Assembly (NCBI GenBank): GCA_964426185.1
Contig: CAYRPF010000024.1
Coordinates: 5,301-37,300, forward strand
DNA from: an uncultured archaeon
GTDB lineage: Archaea > Asgardarchaeota > Lokiarchaeia > Sigyniarchaeales > Promethearchaeaceae
DNA length: 32,000 bases
Direction of reading: 5' to 3'
The notes beneath the pieces were generated by a model. It was not told the origin of the DNA and did no database searches. It saw nothing but the letters and a program-made list of their open reading frames with translations. Each line of letters starts with the position of its first letter. The stretch's first letter is position 1. Made by a program: the position numbers and the translations under genes. Shown piece by piece: positions 3,573 to 31,998 of this stretch.

Positions 3573-4502
3573 ATGATTGTTATGACTATTTCTAATGTTC
3601 CAATATTAGGTATCGCTAACTCCGGAAAAACAAGTCTAATTCGCACCTTCCAGCGTGAATTTAAGGCACTCGCAAAAATCAAACCCACAAAAGGTATCGA
3701 AAGAAGTAAAATTTCGCTCTTTGGGCGAGAATTGATAGTATGGGACTTTGGAGGTCAGCAGAAGTATCTGTCGAAATATTTTAATCGAGCCGAATTATAT
3801 TTCAGCGATTTAGAGCAAGCATATTTTGTAGTTGATATTCAAGACCAGAAAACCATTACAAGTGCAATTAATTATTTTCAAACCCTTCAGAAATCTCTTG
3901 CAGAATATTCTCCAAGCGTGCAGTTATATGTACTACTTCACAAGTTCGACCCTGGATTTGAAAAAGATCCAGCTACAGTGGAGTATGTCAAAACCATAGG
4001 GCAAAAATTTTCTGAAATGGCCCAGCCTCTTCGCACAAAAGTGATTGAAACATCGATATTTAATCCAATTTCAGTGATTCATGCAATGTCAAATGCGGTT
4101 TTGGGGAACAATATCTTAGCCTCCAATGCTGGAGTGATTTTAAGCGAATTTGTTGAAAATAACAACCTGCAAGACCAAATTGAGTTTATTTTACTTTATT
4201 CTGAGGATTTAGTGGAAATCGGCAGTTATTTTCCCGAAAATGTAGATCACGAGACTTTGAAAGCAGCCGCTAAGGAGATATTTGCGGCTTTTCAACCAAA
4301 GAAACTAAAGCTTTATGCTGGTGAATTTACCATTGAATCTGAAGGTATTGAATTATTGGCTCATCGAATTGTAGGAGACAATGACCAAAACTTCTATTTA
4401 TTGGTGGGATACAAGCCTGAAAAGGTATATAATGTGCTAACATTGAAAGATCAAGTCAAGTTGCTTCTGGATCATGTAGAAAAATTGTTAATGTTCCTCT
4501 AA
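3573..4502 (+). CDS. Rag/Gtr-like (Arf superfamily) small GTPase with C-terminal roadblock-like domain
   Basis: G1 GIANSGKT, G2 KPTKG, G3 WDFGGQ, G4 HKFD, G5 TSIF. HKxD and TSI are Rag/Gtr hallmarks. About 125 C-terminal residues show an alpha-beta-beta-alpha-beta-beta-beta-alpha pattern. The start could be ATG 3582. Confidence 0.85.
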   Translation: MIVMTISNVPILGIANSGKTSLIRTFQREFKALAKIKPTKGIERSKISLFGRELIVWDFGGQQKYLSKYFNRAELYFSDLEQAYFVVDIQDQKTITSAINYFQTLQKSLAEYSPSVQLYVLLHKFDPGFEKDPATVEYVKTIGQKFSEMAQPLRTKVIETSIFNPISVIHAMSNAVLGNNILASNAGVILSEFVENNNLQDQIEFILLYSEDLVEIGSYFPENVDHETLKAAAKEIFAAFQPKKLKLYAGEFTIESEGIELLAHRIVGDNDQNFYLLVGYKPEKVYNVLTLKDQVKLLLDHVEKLLMFL

Positions 4503-11885: not shown

Positions 11886-12962
11886 AATATAACCTTTCAT
11901 TACAAATTCATCCAAAATATCTGGAACCCTGCTATAGTCAAACTTTAAAAGCTGTTCAGCTGCAATTTTACGTAATTCATCAATTAAGTGCTTTAGAGTA
12001 ATGGTTTTTTCTTTTCTTAAGGTTCTTAAAGTGTGTTTCTCTAAGATATCTGGAAGCATTTCCGCTTGTCGGATATGAGTGTCATCATTATACATAAAGA
12101 GCGTTTTATCATCCAATTTCAAAACGATTTCCGCTTCACCCTCTGGTTTTTCCAGCTTTTCAACACTTTCATTCCGATCTCTCATTAATTGAATCAATTC
12201 AGGCGTGAAATATTCAGCTTGTCGAGGATATTTTTTTCGGAGCACTTTTTGAATTTTCTCTGTTTTTTGGAGATTCTCTACCTTAATTTCCTCAGCAAAC
12301 TTGGAAAGATAATCAAAGAAATTCTTTGCATATACAATCTGCAATTTTGGTGGTGTTTTTTTAATCATATCGAAGAGAAATTCTAGAGGTTCTGTGGTTA
12401 TTGAACTAAATGGCTTCTGAACAACCAACTTATAGGCTACATTATAAATTGTATATTTCTTCAATTTTTCTTTGTGTTCGTCATTATATTCAAGAAATTT
12501 ATCTGCATGAAATATTTTTGCATTCCGTGCCACATCAGGAAATATTTTGGCTAAATAAGTGAAAAGAACGCAAAAACGTTCGGAATCAGTCTCATTTTCA
12601 ATTAGGAGAAAGGGACTTCGGATAAAACCACCAAATAATAATACCCGTAAATCATCTTCACTGATAAATTTCATGATATTAGAATAGGTGATATTAAATT
12701 CGTCTGCACGGCGGAGAATATCGTTTTTTAGATTTTCAACTTTCTTTTCTTCATCCATTAATGAAAATTCTAATACTAAATAATCACGTACATCAAAATT
12801 CTTATCCACATATGCGTAGAAAGCATCCTCACAAATCATTCCAGCAGGTATGAATACGCTTGTGGCACCAGTTTCTTTTTTCTGAATAACATCAACTGGA
12901 ACAGGAATTCTTCCTGATCTTCCACACACAGGACAAATTACGGTAATTTTTCGTTCGCTCAT
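11874..12962 (-). CDS. Hypothetical protein: N-terminal zinc-finger-like domain, possible DENN-core-like middle, winged-helix-like C-terminus
   Basis: CPVC...ICED.F...VDKNFDVRDY N-terminus, a pattern I associate with an expanded Lokiarchaeia family. C-terminal ITLKHLIDEL...ILDEFVMKGYI resembles a winged helix. The ATG start is at 12962; the ORF track starts at GTG 12974. Confidence 0.6.
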   Translation of the reverse strand: MSERKITVICPVCGRSGRIPVPVDVIQKKETGATSVFIPAGMICEDAFYAYVDKNFDVRDYLVLEFSLMDEEKKVENLKNDILRRADEFNITYSNIMKFISEDDLRVLLFGGFIRSPFLLIENETDSERFCVLFTYLAKIFPDVARNAKIFHADKFLEYNDEHKEKLKKYTIYNVAYKLVVQKPFSSITTEPLEFLFDMIKKTPPKLQIVYAKNFFDYLSKFAEEIKVENLQKTEKIQKVLRKKYPRQAEYFTPELIQLMRDRNESVEKLEKPEGEAEIVLKLDDKTLFMYNDDTHIRQAEMLPDILEKHTLRTLRKEKTITLKHLIDELRKIAAEQLLKFDYSRVPDILDEFVMKGYIMKL

Positions 12963-13051
12963 AGGCACCCACACTTTTTCAATTGGCGTTTAGATCGTTC
13001 TTACTATACTATTATACGCTTAGCGGTTATAAAATTTCGTTTTAGGAACTC

Positions 13052-14452
13052 TCATAAATTAGAAAAACGTGAATTATAATTATTGAGAGAACGACTGATT
13101 TTGGGAATTGCTTCTGTATATGAAGTTAAAACACCAATAAAAGGTTGTTCGGTAATAGACTTCAACAATGGTTGCAAAATTGAAAATATTTCATGACGAC
13201 ACTCCAAATTCCCTTCAGCCAAAAGTGAAATATAATAATCATTAATACGGGAAAAAATAATAAAACGATATTGTTGAAATCCTAAACGAACAGAAATCCA
13301 ATCCGGCATCATCAGTGTGTTTGCAAGAGTATTAGCTGCAATAGCTTCTACTTTGGCAGTAATAATTGCTTCTTGTAGTTCCATACGATCTTCAAAATCT
13401 TTTGAATCTTCTTCTGATCTTGGGGGAAGATCTTCAAATTCCAGAGTGGTGGTAATTAATTTTGATATAATGCCAATCGATTGATAACTCAAACCAAAAT
13501 AATCGACCCGCATTTCTTGTGAAAGCATTTTCAAAGGTTTAGGAGTGAAGACATCATTTAATTCTATCATAGTTTCTAATAAATACTTAATTTTTTTCTG
13601 GAATTTTTGAGAAATTTCGTATTTTGCGATTTTATTAAATTCATCCAGTGGCTTATTTCTAAAATAATCTTTCACTGAAATATTGATTTGTTGAAGCAGC
13701 CATTGAGCCTTTTTTTCGGGGATTTTCCCATAAATGATCAAAATTAATTCGTTTTCTTCTGCAAAATAACAGATTTCTTGTTCATCGCTTGTAGGAGATT
13801 TGAGAAGCATTCTATCCAAATTTCCACTTAAAATTGAAGTGGCTATGTATTCCAAATTAATAGCTAAATCTAAAAGATAGGTAAATGTATCATTCAAACT
13901 GAAAATTTCTTCTCTATTTTTTGAAATAATTCCGATATATTTAATATATTCATCTGCATTGCCAAGCTGAATTTTTTCTTGTTCAACTTGCAATCGGGTT
14001 ACTTTTGTTGAAATTTTTACTCTCGCAATAGAAGAATCGATTTGTGAGGTTTTAACTTGAAAATTTTTCACTATAGCAGGAGTGAGCTTTTTTACAGAAG
14101 TAGAAGCAATCGAACTTGCAACAATATCCGGATTTTTTTGAATTCTGAGAGATTTTAAGAACGATATTCGAGCGGATGAAACCTCCGAAGAAGATTTCTT
14201 TTTAGATGAAGTTAATTTTATAGGAGGAGCAAAGTTTTTAGAAGGAGTAAAATTTCCAGAAGGAATTTTAGATTTTTGATTGGATGATTTATTTTCTTTG
14301 ATGGTTGAATTATGGAGAAAAAGAGATGGAGGAGCAGGTTTTTGTGATAAACTTAGTTTTTTATTGCAAAATGGGCAAATTCTAACATTTTTATTGGGGA
14401 GAGTTTTTCCACAATAGGGGCAATCTTTTTTGGAATCTGGTAAATGAAACAC
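13052..14452 (-). CDS. Zinc-ribbon + low-complexity linker + two tandem longin-like domains
   Basis: CPYCG...CPFC, then an S/K/P-rich linker (aa ~30-160), then two units (aa ~168-295 and ~314-458) with a beta-beta-alpha-beta-beta-beta-alpha-alpha hydrophobic pattern. GAAGGAG lies upstream of the GTG start. Confidence 0.6.
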   Translation of the reverse strand: MFHLPDSKKDCPYCGKTLPNKNVRICPFCNKKLSLSQKPAPPSLFLHNSTIKENKSSNQKSKIPSGNFTPSKNFAPPIKLTSSKKKSSSEVSSARISFLKSLRIQKNPDIVASSIASTSVKKLTPAIVKNFQVKTSQIDSSIARVKISTKVTRLQVEQEKIQLGNADEYIKYIGIISKNREEIFSLNDTFTYLLDLAINLEYIATSILSGNLDRMLLKSPTSDEQEICYFAEENELILIIYGKIPEKKAQWLLQQINISVKDYFRNKPLDEFNKIAKYEISQKFQKKIKYLLETMIELNDVFTPKPLKMLSQEMRVDYFGLSYQSIGIISKLITTTLEFEDLPPRSEEDSKDFEDRMELQEAIITAKVEAIAANTLANTLMMPDWISVRLGFQQYRFIIFSRINDYYISLLAEGNLECRHEIFSILQPLLKSITEQPFIGVLTSYTEAIPKISRSLNNYNSRFSNL

Positions 14453-24386: not shown

Positions 24387-25103
24387 ATGTACGACCAAAT
24401 TGCTCAAGACTGGAAAAATAAAAGGCAACACCCTTGGAAACCCCTTGTTTCTATATTGGAGCCTTATCTTAAATTACATTTTTCAAGTTCAAGAGCTGAT
24501 CAAGAACAAACGTCCATATTTTTAGATGTTGGAGCTGGATCAGGTCGTCATTCTGAATTTCTTCAGCAATATTGCACCCGTCTCATAGAAATTGATCAAT
24601 CTAGAGAAATGCTTAAGCACAATAATTCTCCAAGCCTAAAAGTTCAAGCCGATATGATTTCTCTTCCATTTCGGACGAACAGCGTAGATGGTATTTTTTC
24701 TATTGCTAGCATTCATCATATAAAGGGAAAAACACATAGAATTCGAATTATTAATGATTTTCAAAAAATTGCCCGAAAAGAAGCTCTGATTGTAATAACT
24801 GTTTGGAGATTTAAACAAAAGAAATTCTTCCATGAATATAAAAAACAAATACTAGAGAGTACCTATAGAGAATTCGGAATAAAATTATCTGCTAAAAGCA
24901 AGATTGATAAGGAAATTGGAGATGTCAACGTTCCGTGGAAGGTTTCTCAACAAAACCAAGAAATTGTAATTCAACGTTTTTATCACCTTTTTCGAGCTGT
25001 TGAATTTCGACATCTAGTAAAACCTTTTAAATCTAAATTAATAACTGCCTTTGGATCGGGACGGGAAAAGTCGAATTTTTTATTTATTGGAGTAAATGAG
25101 TAA
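24387..25103 (+). CDS. Class I SAM-dependent methyltransferase, Trm9/ALKBH8-like
   Basis: YDQIA..W...R..PW, LDVGAGSG, AD...LPFR, SIASIHH, ITVW, DVNVPW and RFYHLF match Trm9-family blocks. Confidence 0.8.
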   Translation: MYDQIAQDWKNKRQHPWKPLVSILEPYLKLHFSSSRADQEQTSIFLDVGAGSGRHSEFLQQYCTRLIEIDQSREMLKHNNSPSLKVQADMISLPFRTNSVDGIFSIASIHHIKGKTHRIRIINDFQKIARKEALIVITVWRFKQKKFFHEYKKQILESTYREFGIKLSAKSKIDKEIGDVNVPWKVSQQNQEIVIQRFYHLFRAVEFRHLVKPFKSKLITAFGSGREKSNFLFIGVNE

Positions 25104-25133: not shown

Positions 25134-26459
25134 ATGGAAAACATTTTGAAACATTTCATTCATACTAAGAAATATCCAATGCTACTAATGACATTGCTAA
25201 TTCTAAGCATTTTTCTGCTTTCCTTTTCTCGAGCAACCTCGACCTTCATTTCTGTTCCTTTTCAAGCAAATCAAGAAATAAACTTAGAAATTACTTATAA
25301 CGTTAATTATCAAGCGCTTTCTCCTTATAACAGTATATTTAAAATTTGGATTCCCCGTTTGAAAACTTGGAATTCAGAAGATATAAATCAAACCGCTGCC
25401 GTTCAAACCGTGAATCAACTAGATATTATTCCTCCTGATTTTTATCAAAAATATTCGTTTGATCCCAGCGATGTTTATGGAAATTCATATGATTATTATG
25501 AACTTGAAATGAAACCTATGTATGATCAAACCACGTTTTCCTATTCTGCGATATACAATGTAGCTTTACAATCACGTAATTGGTCAATTCCAATGGATCT
25601 TTCTTTAAATGATTATAATAAATCAGATTCTATTTACGAATTTTACACTTCTCCTCAACCTTATTATGAAATTAACGATACAGAAGTGCAAACACTAGCA
25701 TCTTCCATTACTCATAATTCCACTAATATTAAAGAAATACTTGAATCTGTCTATTTATTTGTTGAAGATTCCATGAATTACACCGCTATGGATGAAGTTC
25801 TCTCTCTCAAAGAAATAATTGGAAATTATCAAGGGGATTGCTCTGAATTCTCAACTTTGATGGTAGGATTGCTAAGAACTGCCGGAATTCCTGCGCGCAA
25901 AGTATTAGGAATTTCTTTGATCGAAGGTTCTCTCTCGGAACCGATTCCAAAATATGATATGCGGCCCGGAGATCAATGGTCATATTCGTTAGAATCGGAA
26001 AATGTAATACCGGGTCATGCTTGGGTTCAGTATTATGTGCCATATCTTGGGTGGGTGAGTGCAGATCCAACTTGGGGAAAACCTTATTACGCATATGGAA
26101 ATGAATCTGCCTTGCAATATCTTTATCAAATAGATTATCTTCATTTAATTACCACAATTGGTGGTTGGTATGAGTACGATATCAATCCACCTTTGGAAAT
26201 ATTGGAAGTGAATTCAACAGGAATACCAGAATTTCCCTTTCTTTTTCCAATCGGAAACGCTCAAAACTATCAATTAGATTTTCAAATTGACTTTGAAGTA
26301 TTATCAAGTACTTATGTTTCTGGTTTGTACTTAGATCAAAATAGTTGGATTATCCTAATAATTACCTCTAGTTCATTTCTAATAATAGTTTTCTTATGTT
26401 TTGGATCGCTTTATAGTCGGAGGCATAAAAGAAGGAATACTAATTTTTTCAGAAATTGA
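25134..26459 (+). CDS. Membrane-anchored extracellular transglutaminase-like protein
   Basis: N-terminal hydrophobic signal, catalytic triad GDCSEF / GHAWV / ADPTW, LRTAGIPAR, and a C-terminal TM followed by RRHKRR. Confidence 0.9.
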   Translation: MENILKHFIHTKKYPMLLMTLLILSIFLLSFSRATSTFISVPFQANQEINLEITYNVNYQALSPYNSIFKIWIPRLKTWNSEDINQTAAVQTVNQLDIIPPDFYQKYSFDPSDVYGNSYDYYELEMKPMYDQTTFSYSAIYNVALQSRNWSIPMDLSLNDYNKSDSIYEFYTSPQPYYEINDTEVQTLASSITHNSTNIKEILESVYLFVEDSMNYTAMDEVLSLKEIIGNYQGDCSEFSTLMVGLLRTAGIPARKVLGISLIEGSLSEPIPKYDMRPGDQWSYSLESENVIPGHAWVQYYVPYLGWVSADPTWGKPYYAYGNESALQYLYQIDYLHLITTIGGWYEYDINPPLEILEVNSTGIPEFPFLFPIGNAQNYQLDFQIDFEVLSSTYVSGLYLDQNSWIILIITSSSFLIIVFLCFGSLYSRRHKRRNTNFFRN

Positions 26460-26534
26460 AACTAAAGATTTTTTAATTTTTCCACCAAACGGAATAATAT
26501 AACTTATCTAAACATATTATGGTGACAAGATATT

Positions 26535-27155
26535 GTGAGAAAAACAGAGACAGGAGATAAATACTACAAAATTGTATACTGGGGATGCTTTGCAAGCGGT
26601 AAAACAACAGCAGTCGATACTCTGTTCAAAATTTTACAAGAAAAAACAGATTCAAAGGTACTTCCAGTAGGAGAATTAACAAAAATCGCAACCCCTTCTG
26701 GTGCTACTAACTATTTTGATCGCGGAATATTAAAAAGTGTGAACCAAGAACAACAATTCTATCATCTTTATACTGTTGCAGGTCAAAAAAGGTTCCTACC
26801 ACTACGGAGCAAAGTATTTTTCGGGGCAGATGCAGTTGTTTTGGTTGTTGATGGACAGCGTGATAAATTATCTGCTAACGAAGGTTCTATGGAAGAATTA
26901 AATGATATTGCTGAATTGCCATTAGTGGAGAAAATTCCATTAATAGTAATGATCAATAAGCAAGATTTGGACGAAATTGTCAGTAAAGAAGAAATTATTG
27001 GATTATTAAAGAAATATAATCTTTACTTTCCAGATAACCACCCTAATGCAGAAAAAAACCCCGAAATATTTGAAACCATTGCTCTTTACGAAAAAAAACA
27101 GAATATATATGAGAGTTTTGTAGAAATAATCGAAAGCTTTGAAGGAATTAGATAA
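26535..27155 (+). CDS. MglA-like small GTPase
   Basis: KIVYWG..ASGKTT, T.YFD, HLYTVAGQ (MglA-type TVxGQ in place of DxxG), GADAVVLVVD, NKQDL. GGTGA at 26521-26525. Confidence 0.88.
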   Translation: MRKTETGDKYYKIVYWGCFASGKTTAVDTLFKILQEKTDSKVLPVGELTKIATPSGATNYFDRGILKSVNQEQQFYHLYTVAGQKRFLPLRSKVFFGADAVVLVVDGQRDKLSANEGSMEELNDIAELPLVEKIPLIVMINKQDLDEIVSKEEIIGLLKKYNLYFPDNHPNAEKNPEIFETIALYEKKQNIYESFVEIIESFEGIR

Positions 27156-27176
27156 TTTTTTTTTATCCTCTTCTCT

Positions 27177-28583
27177 TTAAAGAAATGATTTTACTAACGG
27201 TAAAATACGATTAACGAATTCTGAAACAAGATTATCCATTTTTTCCACAATTTTGGGATTTGATTTAATCAAAGCCATCAAATATAAGGATTCTTCTAGT
27301 AGATCTATTCTAATAAAAATGATCATTTCTTTATCCATTTGCCAAATTGCTTTTTTTTTTTTCAAAAGTTTGAAATCTGAAAAAGTCCTATATAAATTTT
27401 GAAAATGTGGTGCGGAAATTTCTGAAACGAGTTTAGTAACTTCATTGATGGAATAATCTGAAATAATAATGGAACTATTATTGAGCAACAAAATTGCTTC
27501 TGCATCCGATTGATTGGCCAGCCATTTTAACTGCCCTCTTAAAATATCCCGATTAGGGCTTATTGATCCAATTCCTGCTGAAAAAGATTTAATGAGAGAA
27601 TACGGGTTAAAAATAGAAGTTTTACAGAATTTTACCTGAAATTTATGGGCAATTTTCGCCAATTTACTTTTAATTTGATTGATATTATCTAAAATTGAGG
27701 GATCTTTTTCAATATCTGGATCAATTTTATGTAAATTTACAATAACAGGGGGATATTGATTAAATGATTCTAAAATACGTATTATTTTAGTAAAAAAATC
27801 AAACATTTCAGGAAACCGTTCCAAATCTCTCATGTCAACAAGGAAGAATAATAAATTCGTGTCATAAAGATATAAATCTGCTTGTTTTAAAAAAGCGGTT
27901 CGATATTTCATCTGTCCTCCAACATCCCATTCCATCAGATTTTGGCCTAGAATTACTTCCTCATGCCTCTCCACCCCGCGAGTTGGTTTAATTCCTGTAA
28001 GTTCGCTATACTTTTGCTTGATTGCCCTTAAGAAACTGGTTTTTCCAGAAGCATCCAATCCAGTAAAGAGAATTTTAATATTTCTTTCTTTTCTCAAAGG
28101 AATTTTAACATGATTGAGAAATCCATCTATAGTTTCATAAAGTTTAAGGATATTTTCTCTAATTTCTTCACGATTACTACGTTTGGTAATATTGTTTGCA
28201 CAATCTCCCATAAAAATCGAAAGATCTTTCATTTGTTCATATAAAACCGAAGCATTATAATTTTTAACCAACAAAGAAATTGTAGCAGCTTTTGCCTTAC
28301 CTCTTGCAGATTCATCGCTAATAAGAAAGAAATAAGTTAATCCAGTGATTTCCATATCAGGAAATGGTAGAATTCCGAAATATTTAATCGAGGAAATCTC
28401 TTGACCATCCTGATATACTTGTTCTCCCATTAGTAGGCTAATTGATTTCATAGCAATTAGCAACTGCTGTTCTTCTGGAATTTCTGCAGGTATGCAACAA
28501 ATAGGAATAGGACCTTCACGTTCAAAAACCGAGAAGATGATACTTTGAATTATGTTTTCACTCGATTTTTCCAGTCTATTCAC
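27177..28583 (-). CDS. Fusion of FLCN/SMCR8-type longin domain, Rag-like GTPase and roadblock-like domain
   Basis: aa 12-155 carry IIFSVFEREGPIP and FFLISDESARG. aa 168-335 carry GLDASGKT, KPTRG, WDVGGQ, HKID and TSIF. aa ~345-468 show a roadblock pattern (AEAILLLNNSSIIISD). Confidence 0.8.
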   Translation of the reverse strand: MNRLEKSSENIIQSIIFSVFEREGPIPICCIPAEIPEEQQLLIAMKSISLLMGEQVYQDGQEISSIKYFGILPFPDMEITGLTYFFLISDESARGKAKAATISLLVKNYNASVLYEQMKDLSIFMGDCANNITKRSNREEIRENILKLYETIDGFLNHVKIPLRKERNIKILFTGLDASGKTSFLRAIKQKYSELTGIKPTRGVERHEEVILGQNLMEWDVGGQMKYRTAFLKQADLYLYDTNLLFFLVDMRDLERFPEMFDFFTKIIRILESFNQYPPVIVNLHKIDPDIEKDPSILDNINQIKSKLAKIAHKFQVKFCKTSIFNPYSLIKSFSAGIGSISPNRDILRGQLKWLANQSDAEAILLLNNSSIIISDYSINEVTKLVSEISAPHFQNLYRTFSDFKLLKKKKAIWQMDKEMIIFIRIDLLEESLYLMALIKSNPKIVEKMDNLVSEFVNRILPLVKSFL

Positions 28584-28676
28584 CGTAAATTCGTATTTTT
28601 ACAAAAAATTTCTTGTATGTTACATTAAAAATATTGTTCTTTCTTTCTTTAATAGATTTGGAGGGGTGAAAAAATT

Positions 28677-29561
28677 ATAGAAAATCTAGCTGATTTATTA
28701 ATTGAATTACAAAAAATTTTAGTTATCGTTGAGAAATATGAAGATCCAGAGATCTATCCTGTAAATTATATTTCTGCGGATGAATTAAGCATTCATCAAG
28801 AAGAAAATTCAAATACTCAAAAGAAAGAGCCGGAAATAATTCAAAACAATCAATTCAATCGAGTAAAAAGAATCAATCGAACCAATTATATTAAATCATT
28901 TTCGCGTGGTGATGTTATCAAAAAGAAAGATCGTTCTTACTTATTTTTACCTACAAATACCATTTATGATAATTTAGAGGAATTAGTGCAGAACTTGGCG
29001 CAGAATTATTCATTTATATCAATTTTTTCTGCATTAAGTTGGCAGGATTTTGAATGCTATTTGGTAGATTTATTAGAATCAGTTGATTTTGATACTTTCA
29101 GAACCTTTCGTTACTCAGTTAATGGTCGAAGATTTGAAATAGATTGCTTAGCTCGTAAGTTTAACCAAATCTTGTGCATTGATGCTAAAAGATGGAAAAG
29201 TAAAACAATATCGCTTTCTAAATTATGTAAAGCATTATTCAAACAGCATGAAAGAGCTCTTGCAATATCATCTTCTACCGAAGTTTCTGAAAAACTATTG
29301 AAAAAGCTGCATATTCAATTTAAAAAAACAAAAAATCAAGATAATATTGGGAAAAAACCCACCAACATAGCAGATTTGGACTATAAAGGGTATGAACAAT
29401 TTGATTTATATCCAATCATCTTAGTTTCTCATAAAATTTCTGAAATTGTTATTACAAATGAAGGATTTATTTTGGATTTTTCTCAATTTAATGATTTTAT
29501 TCAAAATTTTCAGCAATTCACCTCGGATGTTAATCCAATTAGGATTTCAAAGAATTTTTAG
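28677..29561 (+). CDS. PD-(D/E)xK nuclease (Mrr-like/NERD-like), probably with a ~100-aa N-terminal extension from a non-canonical start
   Basis: LSWQDFE...L...F...EIDCLA...IDAKRW nuclease core. The frame is open from 28656, with no ATG/GTG/TTG before 28986. GGAGGGGTGA at 28660-28669 precedes ATT 28674 and ATA 28677. Confidence 0.7.
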   Translation: MENLADLLIELQKILVIVEKYEDPEIYPVNYISADELSIHQEENSNTQKKEPEIIQNNQFNRVKRINRTNYIKSFSRGDVIKKKDRSYLFLPTNTIYDNLEELVQNLAQNYSFISIFSALSWQDFECYLVDLLESVDFDTFRTFRYSVNGRRFEIDCLARKFNQILCIDAKRWKSKTISLSKLCKALFKQHERALAISSSTEVSEKLLKKLHIQFKKTKNQDNIGKKPTNIADLDYKGYEQFDLYPIILVSHKISEIVITNEGFILDFSQFNDFIQNFQQFTSDVNPIRISKNF

Positions 29562-30462: not shown

Positions 30463-31998
30463 ATGCACACAAATCAAGAAAATTTAACACAACCATTAAA
30501 TTCCCTCATTCAGATAGAAAAATTTTCGATTACAGAGTTCGATCTTACTGATCAAAATATCATTATTAAACTTGAGCAGATGATTTCTAAGAATTCGGAT
30601 TGGATAAACCACAAGAAAATCGCAAATACAATTAAAATTTGTCAGAAACTCTGTCAAAATGAAAAAAGAAATTCTAATTTTCCTTACAAAATGTTCTTAA
30701 TTTATGAACAAAATGATCATTCCAATATATTTAGCAGTTTGGCGCTATTCCAACATATAAACCGAAAATATGGTGCTTTACACACGGAATGGATTTTGGG
30801 GACATGGATGTACGAATATAAAAGATTAGATGATATTTTGGATTGGATTTACAAGGATGAATTTTTATCAATACTTAATGATGTAATAGAAGGTTTCAAA
30901 TCAAATATTTCATACATTTTTTGGGATTTTCTAGAAAACTCATCATTAATCCAATTGTATGAAGTACAACATTCAAGCAATATCAGCAATTATCCATATG
31001 CCTTATTTTATTATCCTTTTGATTTGAAAAAACAGAATCCGATAACTAAACGTAATTTTTATCTAAGTAGATATGGTTTTGTATATTATAATTCAAATTT
31101 TAACCCTGATTTAATACCTTTTGATTTACCTATTTTATGGAAAAAAGCTAATAAGATATACTTTCAGCTTAAAAATTATGAAATACCCTATCTTGGAAAA
31201 AATGAATTTCTTTGGAAAAAAATGCTACAACGAAAAACCGAAATTAAAAATTATCAAGTTGAAATCCAAAATAAGCTTTCTCGAATTAAAAAATGCTTTT
31301 CCAATAATTTAAGTTCCGCTGATTTTTTCCAAACCATAATTGAAGAGATGAAAAATATCAAATTAACTTTCCAAATTATAGAAATTCCTGTGAATAATCC
31401 CCAACATCGTCAATTATTACAGGAATTTCAAAATGATTTGTTAATATACATAATTGAATCGATTCCGACTCATGGTTCTTTATTTAATCAAGTTGCTCAT
31501 ATTTCAAATGAAATCAATCCTAATTTTTTTAAGTTCTCTTATCTGGAGCAAATTTTCGGCAACTTTGTAGTTATAATGTTTCTTCAACTAGAGAATGGAA
31601 AAAAAGTTTGCCTGGGCTATTCATGTGCCTCATATAAAAACAATTTAGAAACCCATTGTCGAATAATTCAAAATGGTATAATAATTGGAGAGAAATTTCG
31701 ACGATATTCATTAGGGAAGATCTTTGCATATGTTGGTGCTCGAGTTGGTGCAAGATACGGTGATATATTTTATGAAGATGCATTAATTTCAAATAAAGGG
31801 ACCCTTAAAATGATAGCATCTCTTGATTTTAAAGAATTTGGCACATTTAAGAATTTCAAATTTACTTACAATTTTAAAGAAAATAAATTTCTGCCTGTAG
31901 CGTTAAATCGGAAATATTGGTTTACAAATGAATTTTCTCGAAGAATTAGACGCCAGATTAAGAAGAATAATACCATCCCCATTAAAACTTTCCTATAA
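30463..31998 (+). CDS. Hypothetical protein with a C-terminal GNAT acetyltransferase-like domain
   Basis: LGYS...GIIIGEKFRRYSLGKIF (motif A) and SNKGTLKMIASLDFKEFG (motif B). Stop TAA at 31996-31998. Confidence 0.65.
   Translation: MHTNQENLTQPLNSLIQIEKFSITEFDLTDQNIIIKLEQMISKNSDWINHKKIANTIKICQKLCQNEKRNSNFPYKMFLIYEQNDHSNIFSSLALFQHINRKYGALHTEWILGTWMYEYKRLDDILDWIYKDEFLSILNDVIEGFKSNISYIFWDFLENSSLIQLYEVQHSSNISNYPYALFYYPFDLKKQNPITKRNFYLSRYGFVYYNSNFNPDLIPFDLPILWKKANKIYFQLKNYEIPYLGKNEFLWKKMLQRKTEIKNYQVEIQNKLSRIKKCFSNNLSSADFFQTIIEEMKNIKLTFQIIEIPVNNPQHRQLLQEFQNDLLIYIIESIPTHGSLFNQVAHISNEINPNFFKFSYLEQIFGNFVVIMFLQLENGKKVCLGYSCASYKNNLETHCRIIQNGIIIGEKFRRYSLGKIFAYVGARVGARYGDIFYEDALISNKGTLKMIASLDFKEFGTFKNFKFTYNFKENKFLPVALNRKYWFTNEFSRRIRRQIKKNNTIPIKTFL

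Follow-up and report, generated by a model that had tools for sequence, protein, structure and literature searches.

An MglA-type small GTPase without the built-in catalytic arginine and the Lokiarchaeial clade to which it belongs

The locus and the family of its GTPase

The window analysed here is a stretch of 32,000 nucleotides from the genome of an uncultured Lokiarchaeial archaeon. Positions 26535-27155 (+) encode a small GTPase of 206 amino acids, as judged from Pfam and PDB matches, an AF2 model and pN/pS. The reading frame starts with GTG, has GGTGA 10 nt upstream, and begins with the residues MRKTETGD, which it shares with its orthologues. The gene is co-directional with two upstream genes: a class I methyltransferase gene (24387-25103, +; Pfam Methyltransf_11, 9.5e-14) lies 30 bp upstream of a transglutaminase-like gene (25134-26459, +; Pfam Transglut_core, 1.1e-17), which in turn lies 75 bp upstream of the GTPase gene. 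On the 3' side, direct reading of the sequence gives a spacer of 21 bp between two convergent stop codons (27156-27176), which opens with a run of nine Ts directly after the GTPase stop codon. The ORF beyond the spacer (27177-28583, −) encodes a fusion of longin, Rag and roadblock domains, and its coordinates confirm the convergent placement given in the initial annotation. A gene for an Mrr/NERD-like nuclease fold (28986-29561, +; Pfam Mrr_cat, 9.1e-5) flanks the Rag fusion on its far side. It had also been stated that no stand-alone mglB gene is adjacent, and this is correct: the neighbours are the methyltransferase, transglutaminase-like, Rag fusion and Mrr-like genes and a gene for a xylose-isomerase-like TIM barrel, and no stand-alone roadblock gene was found among the neighbours of the GTPase gene within the window. 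The window also contains a further Rag-like gene at ~3606-4100 (+) and, at 30463-31998 (+), a 511-aa ORF that matches no Pfam family and is 49% identical to its counterpart in a related genome (G054).

The arrangement of the three co-directional genes could mean that the GTPase is tied to the methyltransferase and to a transglutaminase-like membrane protein in an operon or membrane module, with the Rag gene being incidental. The genes share a strand, the gaps between them are only 30 and 75 bp, and a terminator-like T-run is found only after the last of the three, the GTPase gene. However, the AT-rich gap of 75 bp may contain a promoter of the GTPase gene's own, and the transglutaminase gene occurs without the GTPase gene in most genomes. 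We consider a module of this kind quite unlikely.

The motifs of a GTP-binding protein can be read along the protein. The P-loop (G1), GCFASGKT, occupies residues 17-24 (26583-26606, +), of which G17, G22, K23 and T24 are invariant in 175 family members. Switch I and the start of β2, residues 46-63 (26670-26723, +), read GELTKIATPSGATNYFDR and contain the G2 threonine, Thr58. G3 and the start of switch II are formed by TVAGQ, residues 80-84 (26772-26786, +), which has Thr in the usual place of Asp and retains the catalytic Gln84, as first annotated. The guanine-specificity motif G4, NKQD, occupies residues 141-144 (26955-26966, +), with N141, K142 and D144 invariant.

The best Pfam match of the protein is Arf (3.7e-11, 43 bits, above the cut-off). 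Membership of the Arf family was nonetheless rejected: the G3 motif is TVAGQ and not DxGGQ, and both sequence and fold bring the protein much nearer to MglA. The best four solved relatives in a phmmer search of the PDB are MglA proteins of Thermus and Myxococcus (E 7e-15 to 1.5e-14; including 3t12 and 6hjh), and the next match is an Arl protein with E 2e-6. The AF2 model (pLDDT 87.7, from 22 homologues) has MglA entries for all of its top Foldseek matches (TM 0.66-0.82), with Rab and Arf behind, and shows an extra strand at residues 42-50, between G1 and G2. The MglA-like identity proposed in the initial annotation is thus borne out by sequence (E ~1e-14) and by the fold matches of the AF2 model.

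HMMER alignments to Thermus MglA (E 7e-15) and Myxococcus MglA (E 1e-14) place Ala57 (codon 26703-26705, +) at Arg53, the intrinsic finger of MglA, and so bear out the earlier observation that this arginine is missing. They further pair T58 with T54, Y60 with F56, F61 with F57, D62 with D58 and Arg63 (codon 26721-26723, +) with Phe59. In Myxococcus MglA, T54 and D58 coordinate Mg, and F56, F57 and F59 form a hydrophobic surface that contacts MglB (Baranwal et al., PMC6785124). Like MglA of Group 1, the window GTPase has a Ras-like fold with an extra element between G1 and G2, the switch II Gln, the Mg-ligand Asp of β2 and aromatic residues (Y60 and F61) where MglA has F56 and F57. The signature of Group 1 in G3, TVPGQ (PMC4316618), is TVAGQ here, with T80, G83 and Q84 conserved and Pro replaced by Ala. 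Unlike Group 1 MglA, it lacks the arginine before the G2 threonine, as Ala57 precedes Thr58; the β2 docking surface reads Y60, F61 and R63 instead of F56, F57 and F59; and its gene, which is archaeal, is not in an operon with a roadblock/MglB gene. We conclude that ORF 26535-27155 encodes a genuine small GTPase of the bacterial MglA type without the built-in catalytic arginine of MglA.

An arginine-less clade and its roadblock-coupled relatives

A protein search returned 805 homologues, and all the named ones are from Lokiarchaeota/Promethearchaeota. Only six of the 805 are more than 60% identical to the window GTPase, one of them labelled Candidatus Harpocratesius. Searches of metagenome and genome contigs for related loci returned paralogues of 47-52% identity and no more close orthologues. 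The family alignment combines matches of the protein search with genes cut from related genomes, 175 sequences in all. At position 57, S occurs in 109 of them, A in 47, R in 16, T in 2 and H in 1; at position 63, 160 sequences have R and 15 have F. G56, T58, D62, G83, Q84 and R91 are invariant.

The gene tree separates three clades well, which we call types I, II and III (SH-aLRT 99, 95 and 98, respectively), and types II and III jointly form one clade (SH-aLRT 99). The type I signature is GRTLFFD[F/Y]G with [S/T]ATGQDFY (R57 and F/Y63), that of type II is GRTLFFDR with YTVAGQRRH (both R57 and R63), and that of type III is G[S/A]T.YFDRG with YT[V/T]AGQ. The window GTPase is of type III, the Lokiarchaeial clade of which 159 of 159 sampled members combine Arg63 with S, A, T or H as residue 57. 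In the host genome (3.26 Mb, 92% complete), types I and II are each represented by a single gene (on contigs C10 and C71, respectively) and type III by three (C30, C45 and the window). The best match in other orders of the class is of type II. The database label 'ADP-ribosylation factor-like' is misleading for the type III clade, which may match the group called 'ArfL' in Klinger et al. 2016 (MBE).

The initial annotation had not noticed how widely the arginine-less state is shared. The alignment at the R53 column, with A/S57 and R63 throughout the clade, shows that arginine loss characterises an entire Lokiarchaeial subfamily that spans the order and is not special to the window gene. The alignment also suggests an order of change. 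Since bacterial MglA has R53 and F59, and type II, the sister clade of type III, already has Arg63, R63 was likely gained first and R57 lost later. One divergent relative of type II (locus L077, G008:C13:41897-42355) has AGR in place of AGQ in switch II and no G2 motif, and is a candidate non-hydrolysing member.

The relatives that bear the arginine, namely types I and II and the MglA paralogues of MKD1, come from the same organisms and the same superfamily branch as type III. Four MKD1 paralogues are said to keep the switch I arginine (Tran et al. 2024, Supplementary Fig. 7), unlike type III, and the MKD1 protein of type III, WP_147663710.1, is absent from the supplement text of that study. 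Type III corrects the impression from Tran et al. 2024 that all Lokiarchaeial relatives of MglA retain the arginine. An MglA relative without it is not unprecedented: Groups 2-5 of the MglA family (Wuichet and Sogaard-Andersen 2014, PMC4316618) likewise have no intrinsic finger, with Thr-Thr in G2, GTPGQ in G3 and no known arginine finger. The window GTPase differs from them in having G-A-T in G2 and TVAGQ in G3, and the G2 motif of the clade as a whole is G-[S/A]-T. Groups 2-5 are mostly coupled to MglB, unlike type III. What sets type III apart is the combination of the Group 1 signature in G3 and the insertion between G1 and G2 with the absence of the Group 1 arginine and MglB coupling.

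Arg63, in the FDR motif, had been put forward as an alternative candidate for a finger in cis. As a relocated intrinsic finger it would make the enzyme self-sufficient, and its distribution fits: it is found in 159 of 159 sequences without Arg57, F63 is found only alongside R57 in the 175-sequence alignment, and R63 adjoins the Mg ligand Asp62. However, R63 and R57 are found together in type II, so R63 was not acquired to replace R57. Its counterpart in MglA is Phe59, a β2 residue of the surface that contacts MglB, and R63 stands five residues after the G2 threonine, where the side chain should, by the geometry expected from homology with Myxococcus MglA, point away from the equivalent of D58. 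R63 would then stand on the former MglB-docking face, next to a Mg ligand. This position and the coexistence with R57 make it an unlikely substitute finger, and we regard the proposal, which is weakened by both, as distinctly improbable.

Type I differs from type III in its genomic context as well as in its arginine. The type I gene of the host genome (C10:55029-55613) matches MglA with E 8e-28 and is the last gene of an operon of three overlapping genes (locus L066, G000:C10:55029-57525, −), in which a Robl_LC7 protein of 343 aa comes first, followed by an unknown protein of 299 aa and the MglA protein of 194 aa. The order roadblock, 299-aa protein, MglA, with the middle gene sometimes missing, is seen again at loci throughout the order and in three genomes from other orders. 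The type I operon is the genuine MglA/MglB-like module of these archaea and serves as an internal control for roadblock coupling. Type III genes are not in such an operon: in the host genome, type III paralogue A sits between the genes for seryl-tRNA synthetase and ribosomal protein L15e, paralogue B is surrounded by metabolic genes, and no Robl_LC7 gene adjoins either of them or the window GTPase gene. Type II genes adjoin NAD synthase or GNAT genes, and no roadblock neighbour was found beside the type II and type III genes examined. Thus, where the cis arginine is kept in type I, the coupling with a roadblock protein is conserved, and where the arginine is lost, the coupling is absent.

Some further observations concern these genes. 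The host genome has 11 Robl_LC7 matches. Family f2 genomes and metagenome contigs (L020-L035 and L041-L043) have the arginine-less paralogue A ~0.5-3 kb from the type I operon, tail to tail with it in the loci read (e.g. L025). Paralogue A also has a conserved C-terminal tail of ~25 aa, ending in ...LSKDVPDL (alignment A1), which is possibly a localisation or partner motif.

The convergent longin-Rag-roadblock fusion

The convergent gene (27177-28583, −) encodes a protein of 468 aa. Pfam Gtr1_RagA (PF04670) matches aa 170-383 (6.6e-23, profile positions 1-219 of 232), the Asgard PDB chain 8yl2_A matches aa 164-452 (E 2e-39) and Gtr1 chains match aa 170-407. The Rag/Gtr1-type GTPase domain (aa 164-383; 27435-28094, −) has GLDASGKT as G1, DVGGQ as G3 and HKID as G4, and is followed by a C-terminal roadblock-type domain, as in Rag/Gtr1 GTPases.

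The N-terminal domain (~aa 14-150; 28134-28544, −) resembles the longins of FLCN and SMCR8. Pfam Folliculin gives a weak match to the protein itself (aa 82-145) and is matched by the N-terminal domains of 20 of 20 orthologues (best 4.7e-6), and the AF2 model of the domain (pLDDT 85) matches the Lokiarchaeal longin 8yqg, Lst4, GATOR1, FLCN and SMCR8. Searches of PDB sequences with the longin, alone or as a 20-sequence profile, returned no FLCN, SMCR8 or NPRL2 chain. A GP motif (G24 and P25, in EGP) and Arg94 (in A-R-G; codon 28302-28304, −) are invariant in the 20 orthologues. On the basis of the Pfam Folliculin matches, the fold matches, the conservation of the motif and its likeness to that of FLCN, R94 is the putative equivalent of FLCN R164. 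With a predicted longin fold, a GP motif and a conserved arginine, the domain appears to be an FLCN/SMCR8-type longin.

Asgard longins with the GP motif and a conserved arginine have been described and proposed to be GAPs, with their client GTPases left open (Traffic 2025, PMC12290439), and a GTPase fused between longin and roadblock domains was noted by Tran et al. 2024. The roadblock domain and FLCN-type arginine ascribed to the neighbour in the initial annotation are thus both present. The protein is not a simple GAP, however, because it contains a fused Rag-family GTPase, which the initial annotation had missed.

FLCN-FNIP acts on RagC/D, GATOR1 NPRL2-NPRL3 on RagA/B and SMCR8-C9orf72 on Arf. 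These complexes share their fold, GP motif and conserved arginine with the N terminus of the neighbour (PMC12290439); unlike in any of them, the neighbour's longin sits in one chain with a Rag GTPase and a roadblock-type domain. The host genome has one other such longin, in a 511-aa paralogue on contig C19 (locus L069, G000:C19 ~12,900-14,450, −), which has the GP motif but not the arginine finger, and whose Rag domain has DIPGS and no catalytic Gln. The fused Rag domain of the neighbour retains this Gln. In family f2 genomes, both longin-Rag paralogues are found ~7-20 kb apart on one contig. The two proteins, one with Arg and Gln and one with neither, resemble FLCN-FNIP acting on the Rag heterodimer (RagA/RagC). 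With one catalytic and one non-catalytic longin, on a Gln-bearing and a Gln-less Rag, the Rag domains would be the most economical clients of Arg94. By this analogy, the neighbour's longin most plausibly serves Rag domains, and the pair of paralogues points to a self-contained FLCN/FNIP-like and RagA/C-like machine. The host genome as a whole has 15-26 Rag-type matches; 26 are of the Gtr1_RagA type, most of them in frames of 300-510 aa.

Orthologues of the neighbour are present in 58 of the 61 genomes of the order, and we read the synteny at 20 of their loci. Three genomes of genus g1 and two of g3 are the only ones among them with an MglA-like gene between the transglutaminase and Rag genes; such a gene is absent at the 15 Rag loci of genera g4 and g6 and family f2. 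The transglutaminase gene directly abuts the Rag gene at 10 of these 15 loci, and in other genera the Rag fusion has this gene as its conserved convergent partner (L050-L056 and L058-L061). The Mrr-like gene is often on the other side, and the transglutaminase-Rag-Mrr block (window 25134-29561; L050-L061) is conserved in families f1 and f2 and is the arrangement kept throughout the order. Synteny within a genus was rejected as evidence, as the whole 12-kb block is collinear there. The Rag tree unites genera g1 and g3 in a single clade (support 92), so the adjacency of GTPase and Rag fusion counts as one event. The synteny of the pair across Lokiarchaeia to which the initial annotation looked is accordingly narrow: among the 20 loci read, the adjacency is limited to the 5 of two sister genera.

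The GTPase copies of g1 and g3 group together with support of 58 in one tree and 83 in another. They are 43% identical to each other, whereas copies of paralogue A from different genera of one family share ~75%, and the window gene is a fast-evolving extra paralogue of the type III clade. In the gene tree, the Rag-adjacent copies split off first, with the remaining type III proteins together as their sister group (support 83 and 93). This basal placement may reflect an old paralogue that was lost elsewhere, as opposed to a recent insertion, or it may be an effect of long-branch attraction.

Fast evolution and long branches are also what a decaying or non-cycling duplicate would show, a pseudo-GTPase without regulated hydrolysis, and the window GTPase and its orthologues have lost the C-terminal tail of paralogue A. 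However, the motifs G1-G4 and Gln84 are all intact, and the gene is retained in 5 genomes and several metagenomic relatives. Comparison with the G054 orthologue gives a pN of 0.139, far below the pS of 0.63: the gene is under purifying selection. We consider decay very improbable.

The initial annotation had joined the two convergent genes into a specific couple of GTPase and arginine donor. The neighbour would be the cognate GAP, whose roadblock/longin platform docks the MglA-like GTPase and lets Arg94 enter its active site in trans. The trans-arginine logic of FLCN-FNIP, GATOR1 and SMCR8-C9orf72 is indeed what an arginine-less GTPase would need, and the window GTPase has no cis arginine at the MglA position, next to a longin with an invariant GP motif and arginine. 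Asgard longins of this type have been proposed as GAPs (PMC12290439), and the eukaryotic SMCR8-C9orf72 acts on stand-alone Arf GTPases. The adjacency to the Rag gene is kept in 5 of 5 genomes of g1 and g3 despite the 43% identity of the GTPases, and by chance a gene would adjoin a Rag-type gene in ~1-2% of cases (15-26 Rag-type matches against an estimated ~3000 genes). As evidence for linkage the adjacency is not negligible, but it is at most suggestive.

Several facts stand against such a couple. The link to the longin is positional, is confined to two genera and counts as one event (g1 and g3 clade support 92), and in 15 other genomes the orthologue of the neighbour has no MglA-like gene next to it, with the transglutaminase gene directly abutting in 10. 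The loss of the arginine is clade-wide, and neither the other two arginine-less paralogues of the host nor type III genes elsewhere are beside longin genes. The longin is fused to a Gln-bearing Rag of its own, and its likely partner is the paralogue without Arg and Gln. Being convergent, the two genes cannot be co-transcribed, and an insertion between two convergent 3' ends comes at little cost. The single-event adjacency is thus the sole point in favour of the specific couple, and arginine donation by the convergent neighbour is unsupported; we consider it unlikely.

Loss of the intrinsic arginine and proposed activation of type III GTPases

We hold it moderately probable that the window gene encodes a functional GTP-binding switch of the MglA family which, like the order-wide type III clade to which it belongs, is independent of MglB and reliant on an external activator. 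This reading builds on what was observed of family, fold and motifs, of the distribution across the clade, of the synteny pattern and of purifying selection. Type III has kept four features of Group 1 MglA: the G3 threonine, the catalytic Gln, the Mg-ligating Asp of β2 and the insertion that separates G1 from G2. Two others have been lost: the arginine before the G2 threonine, which is now Ser or Ala, and Phe59, the third aromatic residue of the MglB-docking face, which is now the invariant Arg63. We infer that the positioning of a cis arginine by a roadblock dimer no longer drives hydrolysis. A switch that hydrolyses GTP without such positioning would be slow and would rely on a different, external activator, which would probably supply a catalytic residue in trans. 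The FLCN-type longin of the neighbour may be one candidate for this role, with Arg94 more probably acting on Rag domains. However, a GTPase without the arginine need not use one in trans, as MglA Groups 2-5 have no known finger (PMC4316618). Both the loss of MglB dependence and the need for an activator in trans would follow from the features above.

A more specific proposal can be made for the same data: that types I, II and III in one genome are the steps of a conversion, from a roadblock-activated form with a cis arginine (type I) by way of one with both Arg57 and Arg63 (type II) to one with no finger arginine and a changed docking face (type III), at whose end type III is served by FLCN-type longin GAPs which donate an arginine in trans, with the neighbour in g1 and g3 as the cognate GAP of the paralogue beside it. 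We find this unlikely. The better-supported statement is the broader one, of a clade-wide shift of an MglA-type switch from MglB and a cis arginine toward another activator. If the stepwise series were true, it would be a prokaryotic precedent for regulation in the style of SMCR8-C9orf72/Arf and of FLCN/Rag.

The findings touch on two open questions, namely how the small GTPases of eukaryotes became reliant on separate GAPs that provide an arginine in trans, and which GTPases are the clients of Asgard FLCN-like longins. The locus answers neither the question of GAP origin nor that of the longin clients. What it offers is a tractable natural series within one genome, from an arginine-bearing MglA encoded in one operon with a roadblock protein, by way of an intermediate clade, to an uncoupled clade without the arginine. 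With this series, GTPase assays can ask whether the class of activator changed when the cis finger was lost.
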